Assembly: GCA_017936345.1 (NCBI GenBank) | Contig: JAGBFT010000032.1 | Location: 4,315 to 68,314 of the forward strand | Reading direction: 5' to 3' | Length of the DNA: 64,000 nucleotides | Source: Spirochaetaceae bacterium | GTDB taxonomy: Bacteria > Spirochaetota > Spirochaetia > Treponematales > Treponemataceae | Shown: piece by piece, positions 18,857 through 55,379 of the stretch | Layout of the letters: every line of letters starts with the position of its first letter | Numbering within the stretch: position 1 is the stretch's first letter | The notes under the pieces: generated by a model | Told to the model about the DNA's origin: nothing | Databases searched by the model: none | What the model saw: only the letters and a program-made list of their open reading frames with translations | Program-made: the position numbers and the translations under genes

Positions 18857-18899
18857 AAGAAAAATCCCGCCACCAGTGAGGGAATCCCAAGGTGGCGGG
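18857..18899 (-). terminator. Terminator copy B closing the orphan cassette array
   Basis: Minus strand CCCGCCACC...GGTGGCGGG-ATTTTTCTT; shares AAGAAAAATCCCGCCACC with 22650-22667. Confidence 0.8.
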
Positions 18900-18928
18900 C
18901 GGGAACAATTACAACTAGGTATGAACAA

Positions 18929-19174
18929 CTATGAAATGTAAACAATATCACCTTCAATTCGATAGGAACTGACAATAGTAGAAACATAGGATGAACCATA
19001 GGAATATGTCCATACCCCTCTATTATTTGTAATTTTACCTCCATAACCACCATTTTCATTTACTAACAAAAAAGAAAAATCATTTGACTTAATCAACTGC
19101 TCAAGTTCTTCACCACAAGCAAACCAACTACTACAACTAAAAAGGAATAACAATATCATTTTTTTTTTCATCAT
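18929..19174 (-). CDS. Putative immunity protein 3 (exported, probably truncated)
   Basis: Signal/lipoprotein-like N-terminus; ATG overlaps (ATGA) the stop of the cassette-2 M23 tail; only 81 aa. Confidence 0.55.
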   Translation of the reverse strand: MMKKKMILLFLFSCSSWFACGEELEQLIKSNDFSFLLVNENGGYGGKITNNRGVWTYSYGSSYVSTIVSSYRIEGDIVYIS

Positions 19175-20155
19175 TGCTTGTCCCGATATGTTTCAAATAA
19201 TTTGCTTGGGTTATAAACCGTTCTCCAACTTCCGTTATACATAGAATCCTTTGAATAATCTAAACCCAAGAGAAGTTTCATTGTAGTATCTGAAAAACTG
19301 ACATTATCCTGTGTATAAACCGAATAATGAAGGTGAGCCCCTGTTGTTTTAGTGCCAGTATTACCAAATCAGTAATGTAAACTCCGTATTCTCCAGAAAT
19401 TCTTACATCATCTGAGACAAAGAAGCTTCCCGCACTCTCATAGAAAGAAGACTTCGCTTGATACAGATTGTTGAACCTGTCCTGGGCAGTGGCGGGAACG
19501 GCATTCACATTTGTTCCAAGATACATACCCTGGCTGCCAGCAATGATGCTGTCCACGGTAGAGTCATAGTACTGGGTAAAAACCTGGGTCGCAATGGTGT
19601 CGCCAGCATTTTCCATCACATGCTTCATGTCCAATGCTCTCTTGTCTGTCTTGTCCCACTGGGCATTACATATTCCGTACTTACCATCAGGATAAGATTT
19701 CCCTATCCCTGAATCTTCTAAAATACTGAATGAAATTACCTTTTCTGCCACAGAAAATTCGTTATACCCCTTTCCGCTGGTTCCGCCAAACAGAATGTTC
19801 AATAGTCCTGATTCTAGTCCGTCTGCACCAATCTGCTTGCCTTCCTTGTTTTTGATGGCCCTGCCATGCTCGTCCGTAAGCCAGCCAGAACCGTCGTTCA
19901 CCAACGTCCCATCATCCATCAGCTTCCAGTAGTCCGCGCTTGCATCATAGTTCCCCGCCACGTAACCGGCGAAGATGGACTCGTCGCCCAAGTACTGGGA
20001 AAGCTTGTAGGCGGTGATGTCCGTGGCAAGATTCTCCGTCATCTGGATTGCCTTGCCGTCATCAAGCATCCGCAGGGCAATCTGGGTGTGGGCGGTGGTG
20101 GCTGCTAGGGTTTCGGCAGCCTGCTGTTCGGCAGTGCCGATGATACCGTCTCGAT
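19171..20155 (-). pseudogene. Orphan toxin C-terminal cassette 2: shared pre-toxin repeat plus M23 peptidase with internal deletion/frameshift
   Basis: Begins 5 bp after the previous gene's stop with RDGIIGTAEQQ...DYWKLMDDG; alternative frame 19171-19368 reads FGNTGTKTTGAHLHYSVY...VYNPSKLFETYRDKQ*. Confidence 0.8.
19909..20155 (-). repeat. Pre-toxin homology repeat, copy 3 (247 bp)
   Basis: Ungapped near-match to 24731-24977. Confidence 0.95.
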
Positions 20156-20160
20156 GGAGA

Positions 20161-21171
20161 TTATTTGACAGTTCTAAATTTACCATACTCTGTATTAAAC
20201 CATTCCTCATTAACCTCAAAGACATTCTCACCATTCCATTGTGTGGATCTTGAAGGTCCAAAGCCATCATGGATGTCTTTATCTGTCCATTTGCTGTAAT
20301 CCCCATAATAATTGAAAGTATTCATGTCAAGGTAATCATACAATCTTTGAATACACAAATCTTTATATTTTCTTCCTTCATAAAAATCTAATATTTCTAT
20401 GTCAACCTCACGAACACTTTCCGGTAGTGGAATTTCATGAAAATGTACTACATCCTCAATTTCTACTTCTAGGATAAAACTAGATTGTGGAGATGTTATA
20501 CGTATTCTTTTTATCCTTCGATTATCTTTATACAAGTGGCGATTTGAAGGGTCGACATAACCATTGAGAAGTAATAAGGAGTCAAATTGCCAACCTGGGC
20601 TATATTGGAAGTGCATCCCTACAGGCTCCTTACTTGTTGCCCAAGGCTTAGCATGGATATTTCTCATTTCTCCGCCTTCCCAATATCTAGCATATACATT
20701 AGAACTCATGTCATCTGTGTTATAAATAATCTTTTCCCCATTCTTATTCTCTACTAAGTAATCAGGAACCTTCAAGGGGGAATTATTTATACTGAATTCT
20801 GAATGATAGGGATGACTATCCCATTTCTTTCTCAAAGCAGTGAAATCGAGTTTTGGATCATAGAGAGTAAACATTTTGTTTTTTGAACTAAACTCAAATT
20901 CATCTGCACCAAAGATACAATAGGTTTTTTCACCAAAAATTTCTGTACTATACCAACCATCTGCATCAAGAATAAAATCCTCAATCCTTCTTTTTTCAAA
21001 TTTTGCTCCAGATCCAATTCCTTCAACAAAATAAATATCTTCATGAACTTTCGTAATAAAAACACTACCTGTATAGCCAAGTCTATCTATATAAAATTTA
21101 TCTGCTATCTTGAATGCATATAAAACGGAAAGCATCGAAAAAATAAATAATGTACATAAAAGCTTTTTCAC
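20161..21171 (-). CDS. Putative immunity protein 2, exported, with C-terminal NADase-type glycan-binding (discoidin-like) domain
   Basis: GTG start 21171 with AGGAG SD gives signal peptide MKKLLCTLFIFSMLSVLYA; PWA..LLNGY..LYKDNRRIKRI..EILDFYEGRKYKDLCI pattern; lies directly behind cassette 1. Confidence 0.65.
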   Translation of the reverse strand: MKKLLCTLFIFSMLSVLYAFKIADKFYIDRLGYTGSVFITKVHEDIYFVEGIGSGAKFEKRRIEDFILDADGWYSTEIFGEKTYCIFGADEFEFSSKNKMFTLYDPKLDFTALRKKWDSHPYHSEFSINNSPLKVPDYLVENKNGEKIIYNTDDMSSNVYARYWEGGEMRNIHAKPWATSKEPVGMHFQYSPGWQFDSLLLLNGYVDPSNRHLYKDNRRIKRIRITSPQSSFILEVEIEDVVHFHEIPLPESVREVDIEILDFYEGRKYKDLCIQRLYDYLDMNTFNYYGDYSKWTDKDIHDGFGPSRSTQWNGENVFEVNEEWFNTEYGKFRTVK

Positions 21172-21251
21172 AAATTTACTCCTAATCATTTAGTAGTTGA
21201 TCAAGACTTCTTCCTTGACCAACTACTAATTTTAAAGTCAATATTTACTAG

Positions 21252-22579
21252 CTAAAACCATTTCAACGATCCTGATATATGATGACCAGAATGTAATCCC
21301 CACTCCTTCAACTTGCTCTGCAAATCATCGAGAGTATGCTCTTGATAAATGAAACAGCCATCTGATGTCAAGTTTGTAGATGAATGCACTAACCATCTTC
21401 CACCAGGATCATTATCAAGGGCAGCTTTATTAATCCAATCTCCATCCATAGTCCAAGCGTTGTGTATTTCCATGATATTTTCAACACAATTGTCTAAACT
21501 AAGGATTCGCAAAGAATAATCTGACATAACAGTATTTCCCTGAGTCCAACCAAAACCATGTAAATAATATGGCTGATCACGATTTATTTCTGCTTTTACT
21601 TTCTTCTGTATTTCTCCATTTTCATCCTTATATTCTTCCATAATTCTTTCAACCACATTATATACGTCCACAGACTGAACATTTCCAGGAGTATATGTAT
21701 CTAACATTTCATTGTTCAAACCATACTTACGATATGTTATCTGGTCTAACTCCCTGTATTGACTCTGCAAAGACTGCGATTTTGTCTCATACGGTTCGGA
21801 GTTCGTATTAAAGACATTTGTTTGATAATCAGATTTTCCATAAGTATATCCGGATAAGCTCCTTGTATCTCTCACCAGCGATGCCGTTACCACAAACCGC
21901 TCGTGATCATAGCTACCATCCACCTTACCAAAAGAGATATATCCCATGGTATTGTTGTCAACCAACTGGAGGCCGGCCATAGTTCCACCCTTCCAACTTG
22001 TTTCTGGAGTGTAGCTAAAACCATTCTTTTTCAACAAGGCTTCCCCTGCCAATTTGGTCAACTGCAATTCCGTCACATCATCAGGTAATTTACCACTTCT
22101 TTGGATTTTGCTTGCTTCCATGTCGGTAACGCCAAGAACATCCATCAATGTCTGTTTATCATATAAATCGGCATTTCCTAAATGTGAACCTAAAAGTTCG
22201 GCAGCTCTCTCCTTTCCTAAAACTTGAACGATTGATCCTGCAGCACTCTCCGTCACATTTTCATGGAAATCTGTACCTACAAGTTCCCATTCACCATCTT
22301 GACCCTCAGCATAATATTCTATTGTCAGATCAGTAATCAATTTGCCATCGTCATCATACTCTGCCTCTAGGAAATGGCTTCCGTCACTTCGGGAAATCAG
22401 CTTCCAATAATCCGCACTTGCATCATAGTTCCCCGCCACGTAACCGGCGAAGATGGACTCGTCGCCCAAGTACTGGGAAAGCTTGTAGGCGGTGATGTCC
22501 ATGTCCAGGTTCTCCGTCATCTGGATTGCCTTACCGTCATCAAGCATCCGCAGGGCCATCTGGGTGTGGGCGGTGGTGG
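21252..22579 (-). CDS. Orphan toxin C-terminal cassette 1: shared pre-toxin repeat plus L,D-transpeptidase-fold (Tlde1-like) tip; open frame with no credible start
   Basis: Starts TTAHTQMALRMLDD...DYWKL as in the giant protein; ends WLVHSSTNLTSDGCFI; no SD or signal peptide; downstream of a terminator. Confidence 0.75.
22396..22579 (-). repeat. Pre-toxin homology repeat, copy 2 (184 bp)
   Basis: Ungapped match to 24740-24923, 16 mismatches by manual count. Confidence 0.95.
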
Positions 22580-22649
22580 AAGAATATGTTTGCTGGTCAC
22601 AAGTCTTTTGTGGCATGGTTCTATTGTACAACGTGATGGACCAGTTGTA

Positions 22650-22682
22650 AAGAAAAATCCCGCCACCTTGCGGGGTGGCGGG
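22650..22682 (-). terminator. Terminator copy A ending the pump-toxin-immunity operon
   Basis: Minus strand TCCCGCCACC-ccgcaa-GGTGGCGGGA-TTTTTCTTT, about 20 nt after the immunity-1 stop. Confidence 0.85.
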
Positions 22683-22702
22683 AGGGGGAAAAAATTTACA
22701 AA

Positions 22703-23533
22703 TTATAAATACAAATTTATCTTATCTAAATACTTACCATACATCCACCCCTCAATCATATCCCCATGAATCTTATACCAGTACCAGGTTTCGCCATCGA
22801 TTGTTTCCGGTTCTGCAGAACGTTCTCTTACCTGTACTTCTACATTCTTGTCTACAACCCCCAGAATATCTCCCTTTAAACCCGGACTATTCCTAACTCG
22901 GACACGGTAATCATTCACATAGGCATACCACCATCCCCAAGTACTTTTTAAGTCATTTTCAAGAGAATATTGTTTTCCCTCATTTTCCACAACCTCAAAT
23001 ATCCCCTGTTCTCCATCCATTTTGAATACATATTGGGGATACAAAACCTCATCGGAGGGAGCTGGACTTGTATCAGGAGCATTAACCGGATATTCATATA
23101 TCCCATCAATACGATAAGACGGAAACCCCTTTCCATAAAACTTCTGACTTTCCCTAAAACTTTCTATTGTCTCTGAGATGTATAATACGGAATTAGGGTG
23201 ATTATGTACTACAAAGTCATAACATACATATTTTCCTGGTTGATATTGTTTTTCCACCATAAAAATGGTGAAATTGCTGAATCTTAGAGGTGTTATCAGA
23301 TATTTTGGAGACTTATAACCATTCGAATCAGACACATTTCCTAAAGAGCGTGCAAATGGAGAATTATAATACGCTTCACTTCCAACATAAGAATTTATCT
23401 CTTTCAATTCTTTCGTTCCTATGGATTGCAAATCAGAGTATTTTTTGAACACAATCGAAGGAACAAACTGCTCGCAATATGGCTGAAAAAGGATGAACAG
23501 AGACAATACCAATGTTAAAAAAATAGTTTTCAT
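22703..23533 (-). CDS. Putative cognate immunity protein 1, exported, C-terminal SH3b domain
   Basis: Signal peptide; VNDYRVRVRNSPG...WYKIH...EGWMYGKYL; ATG 5 nt after the toxin stop, SD inside the toxin gene. Confidence 0.7.
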   Translation of the reverse strand: MKTIFLTLVLSLFILFQPYCEQFVPSIVFKKYSDLQSIGTKELKEINSYVGSEAYYNSPFARSLGNVSDSNGYKSPKYLITPLRFSNFTIFMVEKQYQPGKYVCYDFVVHNHPNSVLYISETIESFRESQKFYGKGFPSYRIDGIYEYPVNAPDTSPAPSDEVLYPQYVFKMDGEQGIFEVVENEGKQYSLENDLKSTWGWWYAYVNDYRVRVRNSPGLKGDILGVVDKNVEVQVRERSAEPETIDGETWYWYKIHGDMIEGWMYGKYLDKINLYL

Positions 23534-23538
23534 TCTTT

Positions 23539-26500
23539 TTATTCTCCTTTGTTATAAGAGTGAGCTGAATCACGCTTTTTATACTGGGTTATATCGGCAA
23601 AAATAAATCTGTCGTAGTAATATTTATTATCATGGAAGATATAATCATACTCATTCCCTTTATACAAATCTTTATAAGTACCATAGCTTTCACTTTCTTT
23701 GATAGGAGAATAATTTCCCATTGCCTTTGTGTAGGCAACATCTGATAAATAATTCAAGTAAGGACTTGGTCTGACAGTATAAATATCTTCATGTGAATGA
23801 TTTCCATATCCAGAATCTCCCCATTTGCCTGAATTTCCAGTTTTACCAAGAACGGTATCAAACAAAACACTTTGCCCTTCAACAACATCGACGCTGGAGA
23901 GATGTAGTGTTCTGTAAATCAACTCATCAACAATACTATTTCCTTTGAACGTATAAGTAACATCTGTCTGAACACCGACATGTCTTCCTTGATAATTTGA
24001 GTCATCTAAATCCCCCTTAGATGCATACACCACCTTTGACGTTTCATTTTGGAATAATGGCAGAGAATCAGTGTCTGCTTCAACACTTCCATCAACACCT
24101 CGATGTGGATTCACAGAAAGATTGCCCGTTGCTCCAGTAAATGTTGTAATGTCTCTATTTACGAATGTATTTCTTGTATTCAAAACTGGCATACCACCCG
24201 TAATATAGTTCTTGGCTTTAAACTCCTCATAACTGATATATCCACCATCCGCATTTTCATAGAATTCCAAACTCTCAACTGTTGCGGGATCTGTTTCCAC
24301 ACGAAGTTCCATTCTAGCAAGCCGCGACCTCATGGAATCTCCGGGTTTTTTGTCCATAGTTCCATTCGCAACCATCTTGTCGTAAATCGTGCGTGGATTT
24401 AAATTCCTTATTGTATCAGTTTGTCCAGTTGTCGAATCAACCAAAACACGTGAATTGTATATCTCTTCATATTTTGACACATCAATAACCTTTCCATAGT
24501 TCGACTCTACATTCCAATACCAATGTTCCCTGTTGGCCAAATCATCTGATTTCGTCGTATGGTCAAAACTTGCCTCAAGCAAATCCCTGACCTTTTCCAC
24601 TTCTTCTTGGGTTGCATTCCCTCCATACATAATCTCTACCAGGCTTCCTTCCAGTCCACGTGATTTTGTCTTATAGATTAGATTGCCATTCTCGTCATAG
24701 AGGTCAGCATGACCATCATAGGTAATGCTTCCGTCATCCATCAGCTTCCAGTAGTCCGCACTTGCGTCATAACTCCCCGCCACGTAACCGGCGAAGATGG
24801 CCTCATTACCCAGCCCCTGGGAAAGTTTGTAGGCGGTGATGTCCATGTCCAGGTTCTCCGTCATCTGGATTGCCTTGTCGTCATCAAGCATCCGCAGGGC
24901 CATCTGGGTGTGGGCGGTGGTGGCGGCAAGGGTTTCACTGCCCTGCTGTTCGGCAGTACCGATGATGCCGTCACGATAGGACTCGTGGCCCAAGGCAATG
25001 GCACTGTTGTAGCTGTTGCCACTATTTACCAGCTGTATCAGGCGGCCGCCGACTCCGTTGCTGGTGGTGCGGGCGGTGAATCCAGCCTGCTCAACAAGCT
25101 CCAGCTGGTCAAGGCCGCTGGCAAGGCGGGCGGAGGTGTTCTCCTGAGTCCAGTCTCCGTACACGTAGTTGTTCCAGGCTGCATCCCCCTTCTCCTGTCC
25201 ATGGGCTGCTGTGTAGGATTCCAATGATCGTTTATCCAGGGCACGCTTTCCCAGGTCGTACAGGTTGCCGCTCAGGTCAATGCCGCCGGAGCCGATGCCG
25301 GCGCTCACTCCGTCCAGTCCGATGTTCAGCATGACTCCCCTGCCATCCAGCTTGTCCATGACCTTGCCCAGGATGTTTTGACCAGTGGAGTTGTTGCGGG
25401 CAATGCCGCTTCCCACAAGGTCAGCCAAGGCTCCGAAGCTGGCCACATTCACGCTGATGCCTCCCATGGCCTCGTAGGCTCCAGCCCAGTCACCTCCATT
25501 GAAGGCAGCATGGATTCCATAGCTGGCGGCAGTGCTTGCAGCCGATGTGGCCAGACTCATGGCTCCGCCATAGAATTTGTTCGCCTCGGCTCCCATCGCT
25601 CCGAACACTCCGCTTCCATAGGTGGAAACTCCGGTACTGGCCGCTCCAGCCACCAAGGATGACCACATACTCTTGTTTCCTATGTGGCTCATGAACATTT
25701 CCCTGTTGAAGAAATCTCCGCTGCCTATCTTGTCGAAGTCCATGCTCTGCAGCGTGGTGGTGCTGAAGGTGGACAGGGCTCCGCTGACAAGGTTGAGTCC
25801 GGCGGTGGCGGTGGCTCGTCCTACGGTGCTGGTGATGTCTGATATGGCATTCCCCGCCCAGTTGGTTCCCGCACCAATGGCAACACCCGCCGCCTTGATG
25901 GCAACCTCACGGCCAATCTCCCCGGCGGTCTTGTAGCCTCCGCCCAAGTCAATACCTGCAAAGACAACATCGTCCACATACTTCAGCCAGTCTTGGCCCA
26001 GGGCCGAGCCGACAATGTTCATGGCTATTTCGCTCACCTCCCGTAGAGTGGGTGCTGTGAAGGGCAAACCACGGTCGTCGAACAGCCGCTTGTCGTGACC
26101 AGCAAGACTCAGCTCCGCCATGCCCTTCCGGGCCTGGATGCTGTTCCAGTAGTACTCCACCAGGATGGCTCCCATCTGGCCGCTGCCAAGGTCGCTGAAG
26201 GCCGCATTTTTGGAACCGTCAGGGTCGGGGGTGCCGACCAAGTCCGGAGCCTCTCCGATGTGCTCCTCCAGCCGCCCACCTGTACCCAAGATTTCCCTTC
26301 CCCACTGCTCCAGTTCTCCTTGGGCAAGAGACAGCTGCAGCATGGCCTTTTTACCAGGATTGGCATCAATTTCTCGGAGTTGGGGACTTGTAGTCGTAAA
26401 AAATTGATACATCGGAAGATATTGCGTTTCTTTTATTGGATTAAATAAGGTGGCATCAACAACTACAGTACGACGAATGCTGCCATCCACCCGATAGCCT

Positions 26501-33402: not shown

Positions 33403-36400
33403 CTATACCTCCTGTATATTTTTTACTGCAGGAAACAGCAGCAAACTAACAATGAGAGAGCCCGCCGTACCCCAAGCCATAAAAAAAGCAAGGGATGTGG
33501 CAAAGGTTCCACTTTCACTCAACAACAATGGAATTGAACCAATGATGGTGGAAAGCGAGGTCATTAAAATACTGGCAATCTTATCTTGAATATTTATCAC
33601 CATGTATTCTTTTGTAGACTGTATTAGATAAATTCCATTGTTTACAGCAAGACCTGAGACTAAAACCATACCCACAACATCACCGCTTTCCCAATTTTTT
33701 CCCAACAGGGCTAAAATGACCATGGGTAAGGCAAGGGATGCTGGAATAAGCAAGGAAACAAGAAGCGCTTCCAGGGGTTTTTCACGTAAGGCACAAAGAA
33801 TTAAAATAATCCCCATGACCACCAACAACAAGGCAAAGACCAATATCCTGTAGTGATGGAAGAGATCCTCAAGCTCTCTTGAAAAATGGTAGCTATATCC
33901 TCTATCAAGGGGCATGGTTTGTAAAAAGTCTTCAACTTGTTTTTTTGCGTCCTGGGTGCTGCCACCCATAACCTGAAGGGTAAAATAAGCGCAGGGGCTA
34001 CCATTGAGCCGATACAGGGTTCCATCCCCCGGTTGAAGTTCTATCCTTGTAAGGGCTGAAAGCGGCAGCCCCCCTGCACCGCCACTAGAACCAACCTTAC
34101 CAGACTCTACGATTGGTATGGTCAAGGAAGTAAGCTGCGATAGATTGAGCTTCGGCTGCTCTTTGGCAGATTCCGTTTTTTTAAGGTCATCCAGGGCAAA
34201 ATTTGCCCCCAGAGACTCCTCATCTTCAGAAACCAGTCCAATTACACGAATATCCTCTTCACCAGTATCTTGTATCCATTTATCCACTACAGGACCAAAA
34301 ATCAACCACCTCAGGGACTGGGCTACCTGATCAAGATTTAATCCCACACGAGCGAGCTCCTGTCTTAGGGGTTTAACAAGAACTAGTGTCTCCTCTTCCT
34401 TAAAGTTCATTACCCCCTGGACAAAGCTTTTTATTCCTCCACTTTTTTCCACACAGTGACGGGCATACCCGCGACATTTTTTTGCCTCATCACCTACCAC
34501 AGCCACTTGTATTTCATGCACCTTTTTCCCCTCGTATTCCTGCCAGTTGAGATGAAGGTAGCCGGAATCAAGATGACTGGAAATTTCTTTTATGGACTGT
34601 GTTATCTTTTGAAGAAAAGCCTTGTCATTATCTGGTTTGAGCCCAATCTCAAGACGACAAACCCCTGTCGTTATGCGACTTGTTACAAAGGTAATTCCCT
34701 GTAAATCCTGCACCTGTTGAACAAAATCCTGAACTTCCCTGTCAATCACAGCGGGAGCTGTATCTGTGGGATACTCTACAGAGGCGGTTAAAAAAGAAGG
34801 ACTATCCGCTAGGGTTAAGTTTTTTTCTGTGGTCAAAGCAAAAATTAGGGGGAGACAGGATAGACCACAAAGGAGGGCCAGAGAAGTTTTTCTTATTCTT
34901 CTTGTTATTTCACAAAGAGAAACACATCTTTTTACAAAAACTCTTTCCACAGGATAATAAAACAGCTGGGAAAAGAGTAAAAATCGACCCTGTCCTCCAA
35001 TTTCCAAGAAAACAGGGAGAAAAAATCCACCTAAAATCAAGGAATTCATAACCATCAATCCCATGGTAATAGCTATATCCCTAATTCCCCCCACTATATG
35101 GTCAAGAAAATACAATGGAATAAAAACAAATATGGTGGTAAGACTTGAAACCACCATGCTCATTTGCAAAGATGGCAGTTGGGAAAAAAAACCATTCTTT
35201 GTCCCTGTAATCCCCTGATTTCCCCACCTTCTTTGATTCCAAAATTCTGCCATAACAAAGGCTGTGTCTGCCACTATACCCAATGCAATGGTTATACCGC
35301 TTAGGGTGTGCCGGTTTAGGGAAAAGCCTAGCAGAGCAAGTTGTCCACAGGTCCAAAGAACTGTGGTGGGAAGGAAGAACAAGAGTAAAACTGTTATTCT
35401 GCCTTGAGGAAAAAAGGCTGGAACCAAAAGTAAAATGAGAAGCAGAGATTGAACCAGGGCAATAACGATATTTCTAATAATTTGAGCCAAATCGTTTCCC
35501 CTGTCGTAGAGTATCCTATAATCATCTTCAGACAGGTGGCTTTCATCAAGGATTTGGCGGCAGCGACGGGAGATTTCCAGAATATTGCCGTCATAACTAG
35601 GTTTTATCAATACAGAAAGACATTCCTCTCCGTTTAATCGGACAATTTCTTCAGGAGGCCGCTGACGGCGAACAACCTGGGCAAAGTGCTGAAATTGTGC
35701 CACACCTTTTCCCGTTTGAATGGGAAGCTGACGGATATGGTCAAGCTCTTTAATTTGAGTGCGAAAAACCAAGGGAGTGTTTTTTCCCCTTCCCTGCAAC
35801 CAAGTACCCTGGGGTATTCCATTGGCCTCCTGAATGATTTGACCCAGAGCCAGGGGATTTATATTTCCTGCCGCCATCCTGTCTGGATTAAACTGAAGGA
35901 GAATCTCATCAACACCGCCGCCTGCCACCACAACCTGAGCCACGCCCTCCACTGATTCAAATAGGGGCTTCAGATTGTTTTCCAAATAGCCTCGCAAGCC
36001 CTGACCTTTTTCCCCAGCTGGAACAGCAATATTCATTACAGAATCATTCCCCCAGGAACCAGAAGAAGAGTAGATTCGTGGCTTTTGAACCCCCTCGGGG
36101 AGGGCTTCATACAGGCTATTAACCTTGTCCCGCAAGCCGAGGTAAACTGTTTTCTGGTTTTCAGTGGGAAAAAAGTAAAAGATGCCGGACAGGTGACCAT
36201 ACTGACACTGAATTTCCATATCAAGTATTCCGGGAAGGCTCATAACTGCCTCCTCCAGCTTAAGGGCAATCAAATCCTCCATGGTTTTTGCGTCCATGCC
36301 AAAATATTCAAATTCTACAGAAAAAATATGATAGGAGGAGCCGGAGGATTGCCCCAACTCCATGTCTTTGGAAGAAAAGGCCAAGACAAGACTTATGGAG

Positions 36401-36450
36401 GCAAACATAAAAAACACTAGAACGGGACGTTGATACCAATTTTTATTCAT
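33403..36450 (-). CDS. RND (AcrB/CusA-type) permease 2
   Basis: LPEGVQKP, VEGVAQVVVAGG, RLNGEE, GIVADTA (TM4), GLAVNNGI, ILMTSLST; stop abuts the toxin ATG. Confidence 0.88.
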   Translation of the reverse strand: MNKNWYQRPVLVFFMFASISLVLAFSSKDMELGQSSGSSYHIFSVEFEYFGMDAKTMEDLIALKLEEAVMSLPGILDMEIQCQYGHLSGIFYFFPTENQKTVYLGLRDKVNSLYEALPEGVQKPRIYSSSGSWGNDSVMNIAVPAGEKGQGLRGYLENNLKPLFESVEGVAQVVVAGGGVDEILLQFNPDRMAAGNINPLALGQIIQEANGIPQGTWLQGRGKNTPLVFRTQIKELDHIRQLPIQTGKGVAQFQHFAQVVRRQRPPEEIVRLNGEECLSVLIKPSYDGNILEISRRCRQILDESHLSEDDYRILYDRGNDLAQIIRNIVIALVQSLLLILLLVPAFFPQGRITVLLLFFLPTTVLWTCGQLALLGFSLNRHTLSGITIALGIVADTAFVMAEFWNQRRWGNQGITGTKNGFFSQLPSLQMSMVVSSLTTIFVFIPLYFLDHIVGGIRDIAITMGLMVMNSLILGGFFLPVFLEIGGQGRFLLFSQLFYYPVERVFVKRCVSLCEITRRIRKTSLALLCGLSCLPLIFALTTEKNLTLADSPSFLTASVEYPTDTAPAVIDREVQDFVQQVQDLQGITFVTSRITTGVCRLEIGLKPDNDKAFLQKITQSIKEISSHLDSGYLHLNWQEYEGKKVHEIQVAVVGDEAKKCRGYARHCVEKSGGIKSFVQGVMNFKEEETLVLVKPLRQELARVGLNLDQVAQSLRWLIFGPVVDKWIQDTGEEDIRVIGLVSEDEESLGANFALDDLKKTESAKEQPKLNLSQLTSLTIPIVESGKVGSSGGAGGLPLSALTRIELQPGDGTLYRLNGSPCAYFTLQVMGGSTQDAKKQVEDFLQTMPLDRGYSYHFSRELEDLFHHYRILVFALLLVVMGIILILCALREKPLEALLVSLLIPASLALPMVILALLGKNWESGDVVGMVLVSGLAVNNGIYLIQSTKEYMVINIQDKIASILMTSLSTIIGSIPLLLSESGTFATSLAFFMAWGTAGSLIVSLLLFPAVKNIQEV

Positions 36451-39400
36451 ATTTTTCCCCTTTTTTCCTACTGAGAATTTCACCGTAAAAGGCAAAAATT
36501 ATAGGAACCGTTACCAACACAAGCAGCATGGAAAGTGAAAGCCCTCCCACAATGGCCACTGCCATGGAAGCCTGATTATTGGTTCCCATCGGGTCTATGG
36601 CAAAGGGGAAAAGAGCAAAAATAGTGGTAGAATTTGTCAGCAGCAAGGTTTGCAGTTTTGAAACGGAGGCTTTTACAATGGCAGAAGGAGAAAAGCCCCC
36701 CTGTTGCAAGACACTCTCATAAAGAATTATGCCATTGTTGACCGCTGTTCCAAAAAGCACCACCAGGGCAATTACTGTATTCATAGAAAATGTATGACCA
36801 GTTAGAAGGGTTAGGATTACGGCTCCACAAAGGGCTGGAGGCAAGGTGGCTAAAAGCAAGAGGGGAATAAGGAAGGATTCAAATTGGGAGCCCATTACAA
36901 AATAAAGCAATAACAAAGCCACAATTAGCAAAACAAGACCATTTGCCACCATTTCCTTGCTTTCTTCCTCTTGAACATTCACTAGTTTTACAGGCTCATT
37001 TTGTGCCAATTTGTCAAATTCCCCTGCCACTCCTTCTTGCAAGGCTTCTTTTTCTGGATACAAAATCACCGCCGGCTGCCTATTGTGCCTAAAAAGTATT
37101 TCTCTGGCAGGAGTTTCTTTAAAGGAACCCAGCAGACTCAATGGAACCCGTAGAGATTCAAGCTGTACATTTAGAGCGGCAAGTTCACTTGCAGTCCGCT
37201 GATGCCCTTCCTCCAGCTGAACCCGCAGGGGAATTCGTCTTCCATCCAAAAAGAAGGGAGAAGCCAAAATGCCGGCCACAAGATGATGGGTTGCCGTAGC
37301 GATTTCCAATCCATTGGTAGAAAACCGAGAGGCAGCCAACCTGTCAGGCTCAAATACCAACTGATTTCTCTGATTTTGCCCGGACATTTCCATGAGCTTT
37401 TCATTTACGAGGGGTGGAACAATTCTAAATTGGGAAAATAAGTCTGCCTTTTCTTCCAGTATTTTTCTGTCTTCCCCAGAATCCAAGAGGGTTAAAACAT
37501 AGGACTCTTCACTAATATGCAAAATCTTTGATAAAACATCTTGATTTTTTAAGACTGTTACATGGAGATTTCTTCCTTCTAGCAAGCTTTTAAAATCTTC
37601 ATAATTAAATTTAAGGTTTTTGGGAGGACAAATCATTATTTGTAAAATAAAGGGATTTTGTTCCGGTTGAGATAAATCTTGAAAATGAGAAGACTCGAGT
37701 CCACCAAAAATTGCCACTTCCATCATTCCCTGATTTTCTAGAATATGATGGATTTCACCAGAAACTCTTTCCATAGAGGAAATGCTTGAACCCAAGGGAA
37801 AATTAATTTGGAGATGCACCCTATCCTCTTTAATTTCTGGCAAAAGTCTATATTCAAGCAAGAAAAGACAGGCTGCAGACACCAGGATACAAAGTCCAAG
37901 GGGAAGGAAAATCAACTTTTTTCTACTGATGATTCTCTGTAAAAAAATCCCATATTTTTCTTCAAGTACGGTTACAAACCTGCGGTTTTGCTGAATAATT
38001 GTACCATTGCTCCCATCCACAGAAGGTTCCAATTGACTTGACAATGCTCTAAGTTTTTTTGCTGCAATGAATTGGTATAATGATGGAATATAGGAAAGGG
38101 AAAGGATACAAGAGGCGGCGATGGCTGCAATTACCCCAAGAGCAAGGTCCAGAAAAAGTTCTCCCAGTAAGCCATCTAAAAAAAACAGGGGCAAAAACAC
38201 TATCCCAGTGGTCAGGGCAGAGCCTGTATTGGACAGGGCAACCTCCAAGGTACCCTCCACCATTAGATTTTTTACTGGGTCTGGGATTGACCTTGTGACT
38301 GTGGAGGCAGCAATCGCTCTATTAGAAAGGGGACTTGTTTCCAAGGAAGATAAAGACAGGGCCTTGAGCTTTTGATTGAGATTCTCCAAAACAACAGTAC
38401 CGGCATCTACCACCATACCAATTCCCACTGCCATTCCGCAAAGGGACATCAGATTTAATGTCCGACCTGCAAGGGACAAGACCAAAATCACATGGATTCC
38501 ACAGAGGGGAATAAGGCTAGCCAAAAGAATAGATACCTTCCAACACCGCAAAAAGAACAAAATTACGGCGGCGGCTACCACCACTCCCACAAGGCACGAA
38601 ATCCCGAGGGAAACCAGGGAGTCTCGTACCTCTTGTGACAGGTCTTTTATGACAATGAACTCATAAAAATCCCCATATTGCCGCCGCAACTGATTGATTT
38701 CGTCATAAACCTGTTGGGAAAGTCTCACAGGACTGGCATCATCTCTTTTGGAAAGACTCAAACAAAGAGCTTCTTTTCCCCCATAGAAAAAAAAGCTTTC
38801 CTTTTCCTCGCTTCCTAATTCTACCTGAGCAACATCTGAAAGTCTTACCAAGCCAAGGTCTTCATACAGTAGGGGCAAATCCTCCAGGTGTTCAATTTCT
38901 TCATATAAGCCAAGGGTTTTGACCAAAAATTCCTTGTCGCCCTCAGCAATTGTTCCCACAGGATATTGGAAATTTGAACTACTGATTCTTTCACTGATGT
39001 ATTCAAGGGAAAGTTTCTTCGCTTCCATGGCATCGTAGTCCACTAAAACCTGTACCTCCTCCTTTTCCCCGCCTACGAGCTGCACGCCACCACAGGATTC
39101 CAGCCGCTGGAAACGACCCTTTATATCCTTTTCCACAAGGTATCTTCCGTACCTGAGGTCTCCATCCCTGGGAATAATTGCCACCATCATGGCTTCTCCA
39201 AGGCTTGATGGAAGAATAACCTGGGGTTTTTCACACTGGGAAGGAAGTTGATGGTAACAAAGGTCTATAAGTTCCCTACATTCCACCAAGGCAAGGTCAA
39301 TGTCAGTTCCCCAATGGAGCTCCAGATTTATCAAGGAAAGACCAGAACGAGTGACAGACTTAGATAATTTTAATCCCTGCAAGGATGCCAAGCCCTCTTC

Positions 39401-39607
39401 CAGTGGTTGAATCACCAGTTTTTCCATATCCAAGGGATCCAATCCGGGATACTGAGTAGAAATAATGATTTTTCGCTGACTCAAGATGGGAACAAAGTCT
39501 GCTTCCAGGGTAAAACAGGAAAATATTCCCCATAAGCTAGTTCCCAATAAAATTGATATGAGCGAAACGGGATGATGAACACAAAAAGAAATAAATTTTT
39601 TTGTCAT
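36443..39607 (-). CDS. RND (AcrB/CusA-type) permease 1
   Basis: YPGLDPLDMEKLVIQPLEE, GMVVDAGTVVLEN, QFES, GTAVNNGII, GGLSLS. Confidence 0.92.
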   Translation of the reverse strand: MTKKFISFCVHHPVSLISILLGTSLWGIFSCFTLEADFVPILSQRKIIISTQYPGLDPLDMEKLVIQPLEEGLASLQGLKLSKSVTRSGLSLINLELHWGTDIDLALVECRELIDLCYHQLPSQCEKPQVILPSSLGEAMMVAIIPRDGDLRYGRYLVEKDIKGRFQRLESCGGVQLVGGEKEEVQVLVDYDAMEAKKLSLEYISERISSSNFQYPVGTIAEGDKEFLVKTLGLYEEIEHLEDLPLLYEDLGLVRLSDVAQVELGSEEKESFFFYGGKEALCLSLSKRDDASPVRLSQQVYDEINQLRRQYGDFYEFIVIKDLSQEVRDSLVSLGISCLVGVVVAAAVILFFLRCWKVSILLASLIPLCGIHVILVLSLAGRTLNLMSLCGMAVGIGMVVDAGTVVLENLNQKLKALSLSSLETSPLSNRAIAASTVTRSIPDPVKNLMVEGTLEVALSNTGSALTTGIVFLPLFFLDGLLGELFLDLALGVIAAIAASCILSLSYIPSLYQFIAAKKLRALSSQLEPSVDGSNGTIIQQNRRFVTVLEEKYGIFLQRIISRKKLIFLPLGLCILVSAACLFLLEYRLLPEIKEDRVHLQINFPLGSSISSMERVSGEIHHILENQGMMEVAIFGGLESSHFQDLSQPEQNPFILQIMICPPKNLKFNYEDFKSLLEGRNLHVTVLKNQDVLSKILHISEESYVLTLLDSGEDRKILEEKADLFSQFRIVPPLVNEKLMEMSGQNQRNQLVFEPDRLAASRFSTNGLEIATATHHLVAGILASPFFLDGRRIPLRVQLEEGHQRTASELAALNVQLESLRVPLSLLGSFKETPAREILFRHNRQPAVILYPEKEALQEGVAGEFDKLAQNEPVKLVNVQEEESKEMVANGLVLLIVALLLLYFVMGSQFESFLIPLLLLATLPPALCGAVILTLLTGHTFSMNTVIALVVLFGTAVNNGIILYESVLQQGGFSPSAIVKASVSKLQTLLLTNSTTIFALFPFAIDPMGTNNQASMAVAIVGGLSLSMLLVLVTVPIIFAFYGEILSRKKGEKYE

Positions 39608-41166
39608 AGTTTGTTCACCTGACAAATACTTGTCTTACCCAATTTATTCCCCAGAGAATCACTTGTTTCCGGCGCAAGCTCCAGAGTTACCAATCCCCTT
39701 TGATTTTTATTGAGCAGCTCCAACTGAAATTTGACAGTTACAATTTTCCCTGAATTCCCACTGTCAACTTGCAGCTCCTGATTAAATTCTGGCAATTCTT
39801 TTTTAAGGAGTAAAAAATCCTCGTACAGGCTTGTATCTTCGATACCTGCACCCTCCAGTCTTTTTAAAGTAAGCTCACAACAATCATTGGCAGCCGAAAG
39901 AAGGGTATGTTCCATAAGACTAAACTCGTCCATTCCTGTGGCCTCAGAAGAAACCTTGAAAAAAAGGTTCAATTCAACTGTGCTGTGAAAGGTTTCTTGG
40001 ACAGAGGGATAGGTCTCCGGTGGCAATACCATTGACGAAAACGGATTTGAGGGAGAAAAAACCACCCGTAAATCCTGCTGCCCATCTAAATTTGTCATCA
40101 AAGCGCCCAAAAACTCCGGCGGACGGAATTTTTCCAGGGTGTAGGCAAGAGTAATCTCCTGCTCGCTTTCCAAGGCATTTCCTCCTGTATCTTCAATCCC
40201 TGGCTGAACTACAAGTCTCCAGCTTTTACCCCAAGCTTCATTTTCATCGGAATTCCACCTTGGCCTAAGCCTTAAGCTTCGCCCTCCTTTGTAGTCCCTT
40301 ACTATTTCCAGTGGCGACGCAATGGTAGAATGTCCCACTGGCTCAAGAAAAATAAAAGAGGAAACTTGGTCTAGATTTATATCCTTGGTAAACTCCAGAT
40401 AAATCCACTCATCTGGAGCTAGGGGTACAGTTCCCCCATGTTCCACCTCTTGCTGGGATACCTTAAAGCTCAGTTCAAGGGGATTTAAATCCATTTGGTA
40501 ATAGAAGCTTTTTGCCACCTCCTTTGGCAGGAAATTTCTATGGATGTCCATTACCGACGAGTCAAGAGACACAATATACCGTTGATTGTTTTCCAATTGT
40601 TTTTTAGGAATCACCCTAACACAGTGATTTCCATTGTAGTACTCCAAAAAATAGTCAAAATCAGGAGAAATTCTCAGCCCCTTTTCCAAGGACTCCTTGT
40701 CTATAGCTTGGGAAAATTCCAGCTGAATTGGAAATGAGTTTTGAACCACAACTATTTCCACTGTCAGGGTTGTCAAATTATCACGGGTGGAATGCGTATA
40801 CTCAAAGGTTTCCATCAAAGAGTGACCCCGTCCATCTTCCGTTCCAGCTTCTATCCTGATTATGTATTCACGATTTTCCTGTATTCCATAAGTAGGTACA
40901 AATTGAGCCTTGTTTCCCAAAACAGAGAGGTTTCCCTCCAGCTTTTTTCCGTCCTCTGTGACACTCAATCCATTTTTTAACGAGGAAAAATCGGGAGGAA
41001 GGGAAAATTCAATAAAAACTGTATTATTTTCTACACTACATGATACTACTTCTAGAGGTGGAAGCATAATAGTTCCACAAGAAGGTAGGAGGCATAAAAA
41101 TAGCCCCATCAAAACCATTCCCTTTATAATCTTAATCCCGTTTATAAAATCTGAATAATAAGACAT
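39604..41166 (-). CDS. Lipoprotein with tandem Ig-like (Big_5/SbsA-like) domains
   Basis: Lipobox LPSC; repeated EFS/EFT...L..N..Y...D..GN.L units. Confidence 0.65.
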   Translation of the reverse strand: MSYYSDFINGIKIIKGMVLMGLFLCLLPSCGTIMLPPLEVVSCSVENNTVFIEFSLPPDFSSLKNGLSVTEDGKKLEGNLSVLGNKAQFVPTYGIQENREYIIRIEAGTEDGRGHSLMETFEYTHSTRDNLTTLTVEIVVVQNSFPIQLEFSQAIDKESLEKGLRISPDFDYFLEYYNGNHCVRVIPKKQLENNQRYIVSLDSSVMDIHRNFLPKEVAKSFYYQMDLNPLELSFKVSQQEVEHGGTVPLAPDEWIYLEFTKDINLDQVSSFIFLEPVGHSTIASPLEIVRDYKGGRSLRLRPRWNSDENEAWGKSWRLVVQPGIEDTGGNALESEQEITLAYTLEKFRPPEFLGALMTNLDGQQDLRVVFSPSNPFSSMVLPPETYPSVQETFHSTVELNLFFKVSSEATGMDEFSLMEHTLLSAANDCCELTLKRLEGAGIEDTSLYEDFLLLKKELPEFNQELQVDSGNSGKIVTVKFQLELLNKNQRGLVTLELAPETSDSLGNKLGKTSICQVNKL

Positions 41167-42620
41167 ACATCCTCCTCAAGGTAATTTCCTGCATCAGTTT
41201 TTAGTCCAGAAGTTCCACCGGAAATTTCCAGTCGATAATAATTTTTCACATCATTTGAACTGGGGGAAAATCCAGACCAATAAAGTGAAAGTCCTGAATT
41301 TTTGTCATACGAAACCTTTTCCAAGATTGGATAATTGGCTGTTATGGGGAAAAGTGGCTCCATAGTGATTGTTCCAAGGTCATTTTGCAGGGACGCAAAA
41401 CCAAGAGGCTGGCTAAAATTGATTCTTGTAATGACAGTGGATTTTTCATCAGTGATGGCAATTTCCTTCAATGAGCCTGACTGAAAATTACAGCCTTCTG
41501 TGTCCGTCCCGTCTTCCAGAGCGTTCCCGCCATCCTCCCGACCTTCCCCTGCATCCGGTGTTTCTTCACCCAACTGAATCGAAGTAACCTGCAAAAACCG
41601 ATTGGCCACAGTAAAATAGTGATCCACATTCCGAGTCAGTTGATTTCCGGATAAATCCTTTACATCATGGGAAACAATCAGACGATACTCTTTTTCCAAA
41701 GACCAATTTTCTTCTGGAACCCATAAAAAATCCTTTCCAGAACTACACCTCTGCAATTCTCCTGCAATGTTTGGCTCAATGCTCACCCCATTTTTAACCG
41801 AATCAAAGTCCATCTCCTTTGAAAAACGCAGCAAGATCGACTGATTGTCAAAAAGCAAGCCACTGTCTTGAGCATAGACAATCAAGTCATTGTCAACAAC
41901 CGACAAGACAGGCACAACCTTTTCTACACAAGGAATTACTGTATCAATATCCCAAATAAAATTTCCCTGATACTGCTTATCGAGCAGGTATCCATCCACA
42001 TCCTCAAACTGGTTCAAAACCCAGTTGAATCTCTGATTTTTAGTCCAGGCCTCCTGAGGTACCACCAAAACCTGGCAACCGTTTTTTTCAACATAAAAGT
42101 CAAAGGGGATTTGCGGAGTCAACGAAAAGCTTTTTGAAAAACCAGGAATTGAAATGGGGCTGACAAACTCAAGCACCAGAGGTCCCCTTTCACTTGCAGT
42201 CGGTTCCGTCCATTTCAGGAGGCCGAATTTTTTTGAGGGAGCTCCGTAGAAAAAAATCCTGTAAAAATGAACGGAGTGGCTTCCCCCGGCATCAAGCTTT
42301 AGCTCGCCTTGGATTCCAATAGAATAAGCCACGCCCCTTTGCCATGGTTCCACAGGCTTTACAAAGGCCTTATTTCCTTCCAGCCTCATCTCAAAATCAA
42401 CCGATGAGGCATCTCTTTGAAATACAATAAGTTCTTTTAAGCTTTCCTTATCTGGAAGCAAGGAAAAATCGATTTCAACCTCATCTTCCAGAAAATACCC
42501 ATTATTCTCTGGAACAGAACAGCTTACCTCCAGCCTTGCAAAATCAACAAATTTGCAAGATACCATGTATGCTAAAGTATACATTATAATAAATATTCTA
42601 GATATTTTTTTAGTTGACAT
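41142..42620 (-). CDS. Lipoprotein with tandem Ig-like (Big_5/SbsA-like) domains
   Basis: Lipobox MVSC; LRFSKEMD...EYRL..VKDLSGNQL; TDAGNYL. Confidence 0.65.
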   Translation of the reverse strand: MSTKKISRIFIIMYTLAYMVSCKFVDFARLEVSCSVPENNGYFLEDEVEIDFSLLPDKESLKELIVFQRDASSVDFEMRLEGNKAFVKPVEPWQRGVAYSIGIQGELKLDAGGSHSVHFYRIFFYGAPSKKFGLLKWTEPTASERGPLVLEFVSPISIPGFSKSFSLTPQIPFDFYVEKNGCQVLVVPQEAWTKNQRFNWVLNQFEDVDGYLLDKQYQGNFIWDIDTVIPCVEKVVPVLSVVDNDLIVYAQDSGLLFDNQSILLRFSKEMDFDSVKNGVSIEPNIAGELQRCSSGKDFLWVPEENWSLEKEYRLIVSHDVKDLSGNQLTRNVDHYFTVANRFLQVTSIQLGEETPDAGEGREDGGNALEDGTDTEGCNFQSGSLKEIAITDEKSTVITRINFSQPLGFASLQNDLGTITMEPLFPITANYPILEKVSYDKNSGLSLYWSGFSPSSNDVKNYYRLEISGGTSGLKTDAGNYLEEDVCLIIQIL

Positions 42621-44028
42621 CCTGACCCTCCTTCAAAAAAGGAGATGGATTGTCTACAATCAGGTCTCCAGCTTGTAGGCCCTCCGAAATCCAAATCATT
42701 CCATCACTTTTACCCAAAACCTCAACATCTTTTTTTACCACCCTTCCTTGATGGATTATAAACACCTCGCCCATCCACTGTTTATTTTCTATTTTATTTT
42801 CACCTACTAGGGCTGATTCAGGAATGGTTGGAAATGAGGATGATTCCCGTGGTAAAATACATTTAACAAACATTCCGGGTTTCATTTCTCTGTTCTCATT
42901 TTTTAGATAGGATTTAAGGGTAAAATTGCCACTTTGAGAGTCAGCTACAGGAGAAATTTCTTTTATTGGTGCTTTAATCCTCACTCCCAAAGAGGGAACC
43001 TCCACTTCTACCGGAGAGCCAACAGAAAAATACCCAATATCCTGTTCTTGGATGGAAAAAACCGCATGGACTTCATCTATATCCATTACTGTAAGAAGTT
43101 TTTCCTTTCCACTTAAAAACTCCCCTTGCTCAAAGTAATTTACAGCCACAATTCCTTCTTTTGGGGAACGTATTACAAGATGGGATAAGGCTTCATTTAT
43201 TGATTGCAGGTTTTTTTCTGCTGAGTCTAAATTTGCCAGGGCTGAATCTAGGGCTGCCTGCAAGCTTCGGGTATTTAATGAAACTAATTGCTGCCGCCGA
43301 GTCTCTGGGTTTTCGTCCGGCATAATTCCATTTTCAAGTAAATCTTGGTTTCTAAATCCAAGAGCCTGTCTTTCGTATTCCTTCAGAGCAATTTTAAAGG
43401 CCGCTTTTTTTCCTTCTAGTGCTACCTCCTGGCTACGGTAGGCGGCAGCTGTTATACCTCCCAATGCCAGAAGTTCGCCTTGATTTTGGAGCTCCAGCTC
43501 GGCTTCTTCCAACTCGAGTCTCTGCTGTTGCAGTTGTAATTCTAGTTTTTCTAAATTAAGAAGGTTGCCTTCTACAGCAAGGCGCCCTTCTTCCAATCGG
43601 GTTTTTGCAAGATTTACCTCAGCTTGTGCGGATTTTAGAGCAGACTCTCCCTGTTGACCTTGAATTTGTAGTTGAAGATTTTCCATTTCGGCTAGGATTT
43701 GTCCTGAATATACCCTATCCCCTTCTTTTACATAAAGTTTTTTTAGAATCCCTTCCACTTGAACAGTGACATCATTTTTTTCACTATAATAAATTGTTCC
43801 AAAGCTACTTATATCTTGAAGAAGTTTTGAAGAATAAACTTCAAATTTTTCTACGGTGGAAATATTTTTTTCCTTTGATTCCAAAGCTTTCTGCTGTTCT
43901 TCTCCATCTAGGGTAAAACCAACTAAAAGCAAGATACTACAGAGAAAAATTAGAAAAAAAACAACACAGAGAACCTTGTTTTTTAGCAAAAATTTGCTGA
44001 ACAAAAATTTATTTACCAATAACTTCAT
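42610..44028 (-). CDS. RND periplasmic adaptor (MFP) with long alpha-hairpin
   Basis: N-terminal TM; LYVKEGDRVYSGQIL, IRSPKEGIV, MKPGMF, IPESAL, GLQAGD. Confidence 0.92.
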   Translation of the reverse strand: MKLLVNKFLFSKFLLKNKVLCVVFFLIFLCSILLLVGFTLDGEEQQKALESKEKNISTVEKFEVYSSKLLQDISSFGTIYYSEKNDVTVQVEGILKKLYVKEGDRVYSGQILAEMENLQLQIQGQQGESALKSAQAEVNLAKTRLEEGRLAVEGNLLNLEKLELQLQQQRLELEEAELELQNQGELLALGGITAAAYRSQEVALEGKKAAFKIALKEYERQALGFRNQDLLENGIMPDENPETRRQQLVSLNTRSLQAALDSALANLDSAEKNLQSINEALSHLVIRSPKEGIVAVNYFEQGEFLSGKEKLLTVMDIDEVHAVFSIQEQDIGYFSVGSPVEVEVPSLGVRIKAPIKEISPVADSQSGNFTLKSYLKNENREMKPGMFVKCILPRESSSFPTIPESALVGENKIENKQWMGEVFIIHQGRVVKKDVEVLGKSDGMIWISEGLQAGDLIVDNPSPFLKEGQDVN

Positions 44029-45391: not shown

Positions 45392-45891
45392 TATTCCTCC
45401 TCTAATGGAGCAAGATTTTCCCATTCTTCAATTAATTCTTCTACTAGGGATACAATATATTTTTTCTGGTATTTTACCTGTGAAATCGAAGCTTTTCCCG
45501 TTGCCAAAACTGTCTTTTGCAATAAAACCTCCTGCCCTTCATTGAGGATTTCTCCAGTGATTGCAAAGGAAGCCCTTTGTTTTACTCCTTCCCACACAGT
45601 CCGTTGATTAATTTTAAGAACCAAGTTTCCACCAATTCCTGCTTTATTACAGGTACTGTTATATGTTTTAATTTTAGAATCTATAGCTTGGCAAATCTGG
45701 CTTTGTATAAGGGAGTCTTTGACGTAGTCAATATTTACATGGATATCATTTGCCGAAAATAAAATTTCACCTGAACTAAAATTTTCCACAGGCTGAATAA
45801 AAGTATATTTTTTTACACTTGTGCAGGCTGTGAAGTTCAAAACCTGAATAAATACCAATAGATACAAACCTATTTTTTTCTTTCTAACCAT
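45391..45891 (-). CDS. Hypothetical lipoprotein
   Basis: Lipobox FTAC; GAGG SD; TAATG overlap with the TolC gene. Confidence 0.7.
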   Translation of the reverse strand: MVRKKKIGLYLLVFIQVLNFTACTSVKKYTFIQPVENFSSGEILFSANDIHVNIDYVKDSLIQSQICQAIDSKIKTYNSTCNKAGIGGNLVLKINQRTVWEGVKQRASFAITGEILNEGQEVLLQKTVLATGKASISQVKYQKKYIVSLVEELIEEWENLAPLEEE

Positions 45892-45901
45892 AATTTTCCT
45901 C

Positions 45902-46579: not shown

Positions 46580-46594
46580 CCTCTCCTTGTCCCC

Positions 46595-55360: not shown

Positions 55361-55379
55361 ATTTTTTTCCTCATGTTGA

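Follow-up and report, generated by a model that had tools for sequence, protein, structure and literature searches.

The exchange of toxin tips between a main gene and orphan modules is known from rhs and cdi loci (PMC3150448, PMC3967940); here and below, published systems are characterized from sections of the cited papers. In CDI (contact-dependent growth inhibition), a giant protein with a variable tip is accompanied by downstream orphan cdiA-CT/cdiI tip/immunity pairs and a conserved boundary peptide, and strains have modules in common that reach from each boundary region to the following one (PMC3150448). In Salmonella rhs, homologous recombination between the main gene and an orphan passes through a near-identical block, and a prior duplication would retain the old immunity gene (PMC3967940). 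Polymorphic toxins combine a constant N-terminal body with cassettes in toxin-then-immunity order, among them an LD-peptidase tip with H, S, and C (PMC3482391). We analyzed a similar arrangement in a window, that is, the whole 64,000-nucleotide stretch of contig JAGBFT010000032.1, from the assembly (G000) of a Treponema-like gut spirochaete, where three copies of a repeat block connect a giant gene of 3287 amino acids (aa) with two downstream tip/partner cassettes. The original prediction, made from the letters of this stretch, had drawn the analogy to orphan rhs/cdi modules, and the comparison is apt.

Spirochaete giants with variable C-termini are known from Leptospira as TIGR04388 (Lepto_longest). 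The present giant was rejected as a member, since the model (family cut-off, 45 bits) had no match in this genome at E ≤ 10 and none in ten homologous giants. Pfam and NCBIfam searches of the giant and its neighbours found no CdiB, haemagglutinin repeats, or VENN as in CDI, and none of the YD/RHS repeats, DPxG core, or type VI domain of Rhs proteins on the giant. Unlike in CDI, the boundary here closes a domain predicted to be zincin-like, the tips are mostly predicted wall enzymes, and the partners are predicted to be exported. The main text of the polymorphic toxin survey is without the term ‘M23’, and in the sections drawn on it lists Tox-LD-peptidase without spirochaetes and gives no route linked to resistance-nodulation-division (RND) permeases and TolC (PMC3482391); treponemal RND/TolC systems are treated, in the sections used, as small-molecule efflux only (PMC8407342). 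No published description of the family was found in a search that left subscription journals and the PMC3482391 supplement largely aside. In our view, the locus works by a mechanism that is already known and that the data here support well, in a spirochaete family that appears to be undescribed.

Near-identical stalks carry different tips

Recomputation reproduced the three repeats with the coordinates and mismatch counts originally reported (Table 1). All copies lie on the minus strand. The copy within the giant gene (G) aligns ungapped with the distal copy (D) over 247 bp with 30 mismatches (87.9% identity) and with the proximal copy (P) over 184 bp with 16 mismatches; P and D are 95.1% identical over 184 bp (9 mismatches). 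The longest perfect runs among the copies are 50, 27, and 84 bp, and P and D are offset from G by 2344 and 4822 bp. A fourth copy was not found in the assembly, which is 75% complete. On the minus strand, the modules follow in the order giant with its tip CTg, partner gene immG, hairpin, block P, tip CTp, immP, block D, tip CTd, immD, and hairpin.

Next, the tips were compared among close homologs of the giant. Its cluster has 14 members, 11 of which are at least 3000 aa long and match the representative at 98.2-100% identity in the stalk. These 11 near-identical stalks carry five tip types. Four of them, the giant of the window included, end in CTg, and the other 7/11 lack it: P0021 and P0022 end in CTp (99.2% and 97.1% identity; stalks 99.2% and 98.5% identical to the representative), one breaks off within a tip of CTp type, two bear a tip related to CTp (67%), and two have other tips. 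Four of the five types differ from the main tip of this genome, and three are missing from its array. The proposal that crossover in the block loads a new tip with its partner gene is supported by these proteins of the same species, P0021 and P0022, which carry the orphan CTp of the window on the stalk; the computed fusion of the giant to CTp is in frame and 3268 aa long, the length of P0022. In P0016 and P0020, CTg is an orphan behind the reading of immP end and block head that precedes CTd in the window. This order is the reciprocal of that in P0021 and P0022, and the same module is an orphan in one strain and the main tip in another, displaying both ends of a swap. A further candidate, L007, was rejected, as a 55-bp contig overlap showed its CTp to be an orphan that follows a giant whose tip is different.

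The original prediction would have lost its footing if homologs never varied downstream of the boundary; all eight clusters examined at 90% identity (8/8) hold at least two tip types. These results indicate that homologous recombination in the block is likely to exchange tip-plus-partner modules on the giant. Repeats of relatives are longer, about 0.26 to 2.4 kb, indicating that the pre-toxin region at large serves as the handle, of which this genome has duplicated 184-247 bp.

Modules and the pre-toxin tract are shared between species

A P83/100 gene lies near the locus, and the loci closest to it bear Treponema or Spirochaetales labels. The block-to-block tract with CTp and immP recurs in another species, G014, with both ends of the common tract falling inside block copies; module ends inside boundary regions are also the pattern of cdi orphans (PMC3150448, Fig. 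S4 legend). At the nucleotide level, CTp and immP are 93.3% and 96.9% identical to those of G014, compared to 78% for the flanking P83 gene and 72% for the pyrroloquinoline quinone (PQQ) gene. Divergence at four-fold sites was 0.18 for CTp and 0.06 for immP versus 0.49-0.64 for neighbours and stalk, indicating recent transfer rather than protein constraint alone. The high-GC pre-toxin tract showed 94-95% aa identity with two species whose stalks are 50-57% identical, and across species the four-fold divergence of the ~1.5 kb leading up to the boundary was 0.05-0.11, against 0.57-0.61. From its composition and divergence, this tract was likely exchanged horizontally. G007, whose stalk has a GC content at third codon positions (GC3) of 0.76, resembles a putative donor lineage of the GC-rich tract.

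The three copies had also been described as mosaic. The shared peptides listed for them are all correct, although they are not evidence alone, because three sequences always split biallelic sites 2:1. A runs test on the mosaic sites gave p=0.0015 raw and p=0.38 after neighbouring sites were merged, and the three-copy mosaic was rejected as proof of recombination. Among 13 blocks, four gametes were observed in 10/36 informative site pairs, which is stronger support for recombination inside the block than the three-way mosaic. Of the minority block alleles, 19/22 were found in other genomes, some of them in diverged copies, where they may be homoplasy.

The pre-toxin domain and its boundary

The whole giant protein matches no Pfam or NCBIfam family. 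Its N-terminus is likely a Sec signal, as judged from the sequence, and the long, acidic stalk contains a hydrophobic segment, aa ~1733-1786. The block encodes the C-terminal half of the conserved pre-toxin domain, in which HESYRDG lies at 24987-24967 and which closes with Y-D-x-S-x-D-[YF]-W at 24771-24748. The HExxH zinc motif of zincin metallopeptidases is absent, and HExxR stands instead. In 31 aligned copies, the H, E, R, and G, the later E and H, and the Y, D, and W are invariant; HExxR occurs in 31/31 of these copies and in 148/150 best representatives, with the distal E and H invariant, although the 150 representatives are those closest to the profile, and their conservation is partly by construction. 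The domain model had a predicted local distance difference test score (pLDDT) of 85. Its best structural match was deuterolysin, with a Z of only 7.4 (root-mean-square deviation, rmsd, 4.5; 104 aligned), and most of the 50 matches listed were zincin-like. Foldseek with this model gave nothing at E ≤ 0.001, and the ESM Atlas gave no usable match for the domain or the N-terminus of the giant. Both orphan tips begin downstream of the H-E residues.

DYWKL had been suggested as the boundary motif of the family. Across 36 loci, counted after one duplicate row and one row ending before the motif were excluded, 31 had DYW at the boundary and 5 had DFW, and 17 continued with KL; of the best 150 representatives, 119 had DYW, 26 had DFW, and 5 lacked the motif, and KL followed in 75/145. 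The motif is therefore Y-D-x-S-x-D-[YF]-W without KL. Divergence right after DYWKL held only for copy P; the giant and copy D still share KLMDDG. A loose ‘DG..L.DE.G’ hairpin extends ~25 codons past the boundary in many tips.

Tips, partner genes and hairpins

The His340, Ser347, and Cys350 residues of CTp are invariant in 9/9 relatives. When the CTp model was compared with known structures, the top 20 matches all had the L,D-transpeptidase (YkuD) fold (Z 8.3-5.2; next Z 3.0), the best with an rmsd of 3.9 over 121 aligned residues. CTp had no Pfam match, its alignment no match in a PDB sequence search, and its model nothing at E ≤ 0.001 in Foldseek. A complex prediction for the CTp domain with immP scored 0.00, which speaks neither for nor against pairing. 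Discoidin-like partners accompany 9/9 CTp-family tips and 0/20 other tips with a partner, with kin among them not independent.

CTd matches the M23-bearing tip of P0004, a full-length giant of a related species, in two pieces (84% and 97%). Compared to P0004, it lacks about 99 codons, with a frame change at about 19368/19369. Other runs have extra sequence at this break, and three other runs also at 18933/18935 in immD. These results indicate that the distal cassette is decaying in this strain.

The giant and all three partners have hydrophobic N-termini, and the orphan tip open reading frames (ORFs) lack them. Past the hairpin after immG, a promoter-like site at 22651-22623 has 10/12 matches; such sites overall were not enriched (14 versus 18.4 in shuffles). 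Hairpins of the same family follow partner genes in several species (L002 12359-12439; L051 1-110), moving with modules. Tips are two-part, with linker and catalytic end recombining separately, such as a CTg-like linker on another catalytic end (L007 3046-4296, L049 10828-11922, L002 10655-11707).

Family breadth and the upstream operon

Profile searching recovered 730 clusters at 50% identity, marking a large family for which no Pfam or NCBIfam model was found. Its distribution is patchy: the pre-toxin domain occurs in 19/61 relatives and 17/301 genomes of the phylum. Among the best 150 representatives, 124 tips form 31 groups; a Pfam scan of 72 of these representatives returned M23 in 7, NlpC/P60 in 3, M15 in 2, and two weak unrelated matches. 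In the loci examined, M23 was found in 12/33 tips, 7 above the cut-off, and 29/36 tips had a downstream partner ORF, with most misses at contig or locus ends. Known toxin-type folds among the tips are Ntox44, M23, NlpC/P60, M15, and the L,D-transpeptidase fold, and many tips are without assignment. The giant P0008 ends in Ntox44, which we take to be an RNase-type family; such a tip implies that some tips would have to reach the cytoplasm.

The upstream operon abuts the start of the giant gene and also lies beside it in distant spirochaetes. It adjoins the giant in 7/9 further loci and most earlier ones, except in G019 and L005. One of its genes for an immunoglobulin-like (Ig-like) protein was found in 17/19 genomes with the pre-toxin domain, kin not being independent; the two exceptions had only fragments in the regions examined, and 4 genomes had the Ig-like gene without a domain match. 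The one-contig genomes G001 (C1 ~2342000-2350000) and G018 (C1 ~2735000-2753000) hold only fragments and tip/partner pairs, with no Ig-like match, in the regions examined; these fragments are possibly immunity-keeping remnants. Speculatively, the RND-TolC operon is a candidate export or assembly machinery of the giant.

Table 1. Features of the giant-gene locus in window coordinates (TPR, tetratricopeptide repeat).
Feature	Position	Strand	Description
Giant gene, 3287 aa	23539..33402	-	Hydrophobic N-terminus, acidic stalk, Gly/Ala-rich region, pre-toxin domain, variable tip
High-GC pre-toxin tract	24748..26200	-	GC3 0.71 vs 0.41 in stalk
Pre-toxin domain	24748..25311	-	Predicted zincin-like fold, H-E-x-x-R-x-G motif, downstream E and H
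Block copy G	24731..24977	-	C-terminal half of pre-toxin domain, putative recombination handle
Tip CTg, 402 aa	23539..24747	-	Linker and M23-like peptidase; HRGVD 24105-24091, HSH 23799-23791
Partner immG	22703..23533	-	Hydrophobic N-terminus, SH3b domain; predicted immunity protein
Terminator-like hairpin after immG	22658..22683	-	
Block copy P	22396..22579	-	184 bp; without H-E residues, without signal peptide
Orphan tip CTp, 383 aa	21252..22403	-	C-terminal L,D-transpeptidase fold (predicted); on full stalk in P0021, P0022
Partner immP	20161..21171	-	AGGAG site, hydrophobic N-terminus, discoidin-like domain (PF25302/NF047619); predicted immunity protein
Block copy D	19909..20155	-	247 bp, begins 6 bp past immP stop codon
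Orphan tip CTd	19171..19925	-	M23 family, broken in this strain
Partner immD, 81 aa	18929..19174	-	Probably shortened
Second hairpin	18857..18900	-	18 bases identical with 22650-22667; ends array
Block-to-block tract (CTp-immP and block ends), 2384 bp	20073..22456	-	94.4% identical in other species G014
Upstream operon	33403..47962	-	TPR, TPR, unknown 166 aa, TolC-like, membrane-fusion protein, two Ig-like (Big_5), two RND permeases

The modules in sequencing runs

We then examined 8 of the 24 listed sequencing runs as assembled contigs. The DNA runs X1, X3, X4, and X5, from four studies, contain all three modules on separate contigs, some of which terminate inside a block, and no contig of the 8 runs covers a whole block. 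In X1, the possible source run, unique stretches had a depth of 20-23, and collapsed pieces of the blocks reached 34-36. One X3 contig joint, 17962-22633, rests on 30 letters. Uncovered stretches in X8 and in the RNA run X15 count for nothing either way.

Discussion

In its sequence, the locus displays the genomic marks of polymorphic toxin systems, namely interchangeable tips, a cognate downstream gene, homologous orphan cassettes, and known toxin folds. We consider it quite probable that this is a predicted antibacterial polymorphic-toxin locus in which recombination in the pre-toxin end swaps tip-partner modules. A module would comprise the 3' part of a block, a tip, its partner gene, and the 5' part of the next block, and it would move by crossover between block copies. 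Within a genome, modules would be reordered after duplication, or by excision and re-insertion; between Treponema species, they would be imported with the whole ~1.5-kb pre-toxin tract as homology. With still greater confidence, we propose that RecA-type crossover in the block moves the modules and that reordering or import occurs oftener than plain deletion.

The giant would be exported via its signal peptide, its tip would cut or mis-link competitor peptidoglycan by M23 or L,D-transpeptidase-type chemistry, and the exported partner protein would protect the owner cell. This division of roles, with tips attacking the peptidoglycan of competitors and partners protecting, is in our judgement quite likely. 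Orphan tips would be silent without a signal peptide, while their partner genes may be expressed. Autoprocessing, in which the zincin-like HExxR domain would free the tip close to or at the D[YF]W boundary, is put forward only tentatively. Similarly, export of the giant through the neighbouring RND-TolC machinery is conceivable rather than probable. We hold it doubtful, though possible, that all these parts make up an undescribed spirochaete weapon, in which a ~370-kDa protein has a dedicated RND-adaptor-TolC export with Ig-like/TPR helpers, HExxR processing, and traded peptidoglycan tips; if true, an efflux-pump architecture would serve as a protein-toxin export route. If confirmed, the locus would provide spirochaetes of the gut and elsewhere with a competition system; it would also offer a source of new peptidoglycan enzymes, each paired with its inhibitor, and a question on protein export via RND-TolC that can be tested.

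Several observations weigh against these proposals. Toxicity, immunity, and export of the giant system are predicted from sequence and models only. The homology is shorter here, 184-247 bp at 88-95%, compared to 522 bp at 95% in Salmonella rhs (PMC3967940). With HExxR rather than HExxH, peptidase activity of the pre-toxin domain is doubtful. The PF01551 match of CTg is weak (E=0.0048, 17.5 bits versus a cut-off of 28.7), although its HxxxD and HxH motifs are present; the model of CTp is of intermediate quality (pLDDT 66.6, best Z 8.3), and 58/72 scanned representatives had no Pfam match at all. Since run contigs break inside blocks, they confirm the modules and not independently their order, and no block-to-block deletion junction appeared in the contigs of the 8 runs. 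Moreover, both P0021 and P0022 are assembly products that mis-joining over the repeat could have created. The tips of P0015, P0017, and P0018/19 are free of this doubt because they are absent from this locus.

Assembly artefacts or chance similarity would fit a fragmented, 75% complete assembly whose blocks no contig spans, yet they can hardly account for the repeats: the copies vary at 22 core sites, are flanked by unique sequence, recur in the runs of four studies with raised depth on the collapsed pieces, and score 263-311 bits in self-BLAST against a maximum of 31 bits in 50 shuffles. G047, G018, G001, and G327, whose genomes each consist of one to four contigs, have the same layout. The assembly artefact that the original prediction had proposed to look for in raw reads is largely refuted. 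Plain intragenomic deletion of 2344 or 4822 bp between blocks is, in contrast, a mechanism that the direct repeats permit, being in register and yielding an in-frame fusion of the observed length, and a comparable deletion has been reported at a cdi locus (PMC3150448). As the main route of tip change, however, it is unlikely. CTg as an orphan behind immP in P0016 and P0020 represents reordering without loss, the four tip types other than the main tip include three from outside the array, the module is common to two species, and immG would be lost. The two deletion junctions that had been predicted were not found in the contigs of the 8 runs, and the 4822-bp deletion would, in this strain, attach a broken tip, as CTd is not intact. 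Reordering and import fit better with the P0016/P0020 order and the cross-species module.

Alternatively, the giant might be a scaffold of interchangeable enzymes that remodel the cell's own wall, with the partners as regulators or substrate-binding subunits. This is improbable, more so than the deletion route. Unrelated catalytic folds replace one another among near-identical strains, one tip belongs to the toxin family Ntox44, orphan cassettes decay, the domain is patchy among relatives and across the phylum, and the tip-then-partner order is that of polymorphic toxins (PMC3482391). Nevertheless, most identified tips are peptidoglycan enzymes, the SH3b or discoidin-like domains of the partners can bind wall polymers, and the N-terminus is signal-like with no known toxin-delivery domain found in Pfam or NCBIfam, all of which would fit a wall-remodelling scaffold.

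Other genes of the window

A DNA-alkylation-repair gene (PF08713; 18099-18821, plus strand) separates the P83/100 gene from the end of the array; its place beside P83 is taken in G014 and G009 by a gene like those of the major facilitator superfamily (MFS). Farther away, the window encodes a 481-aa BspA-type leucine-rich-repeat protein (8794-10239, plus strand) and a 680-aa ORF (53387-55429, minus strand) that fuses 3-deoxy-D-arabino-heptulosonate 7-phosphate (DAHP) synthase and prephenate dehydratase domains.

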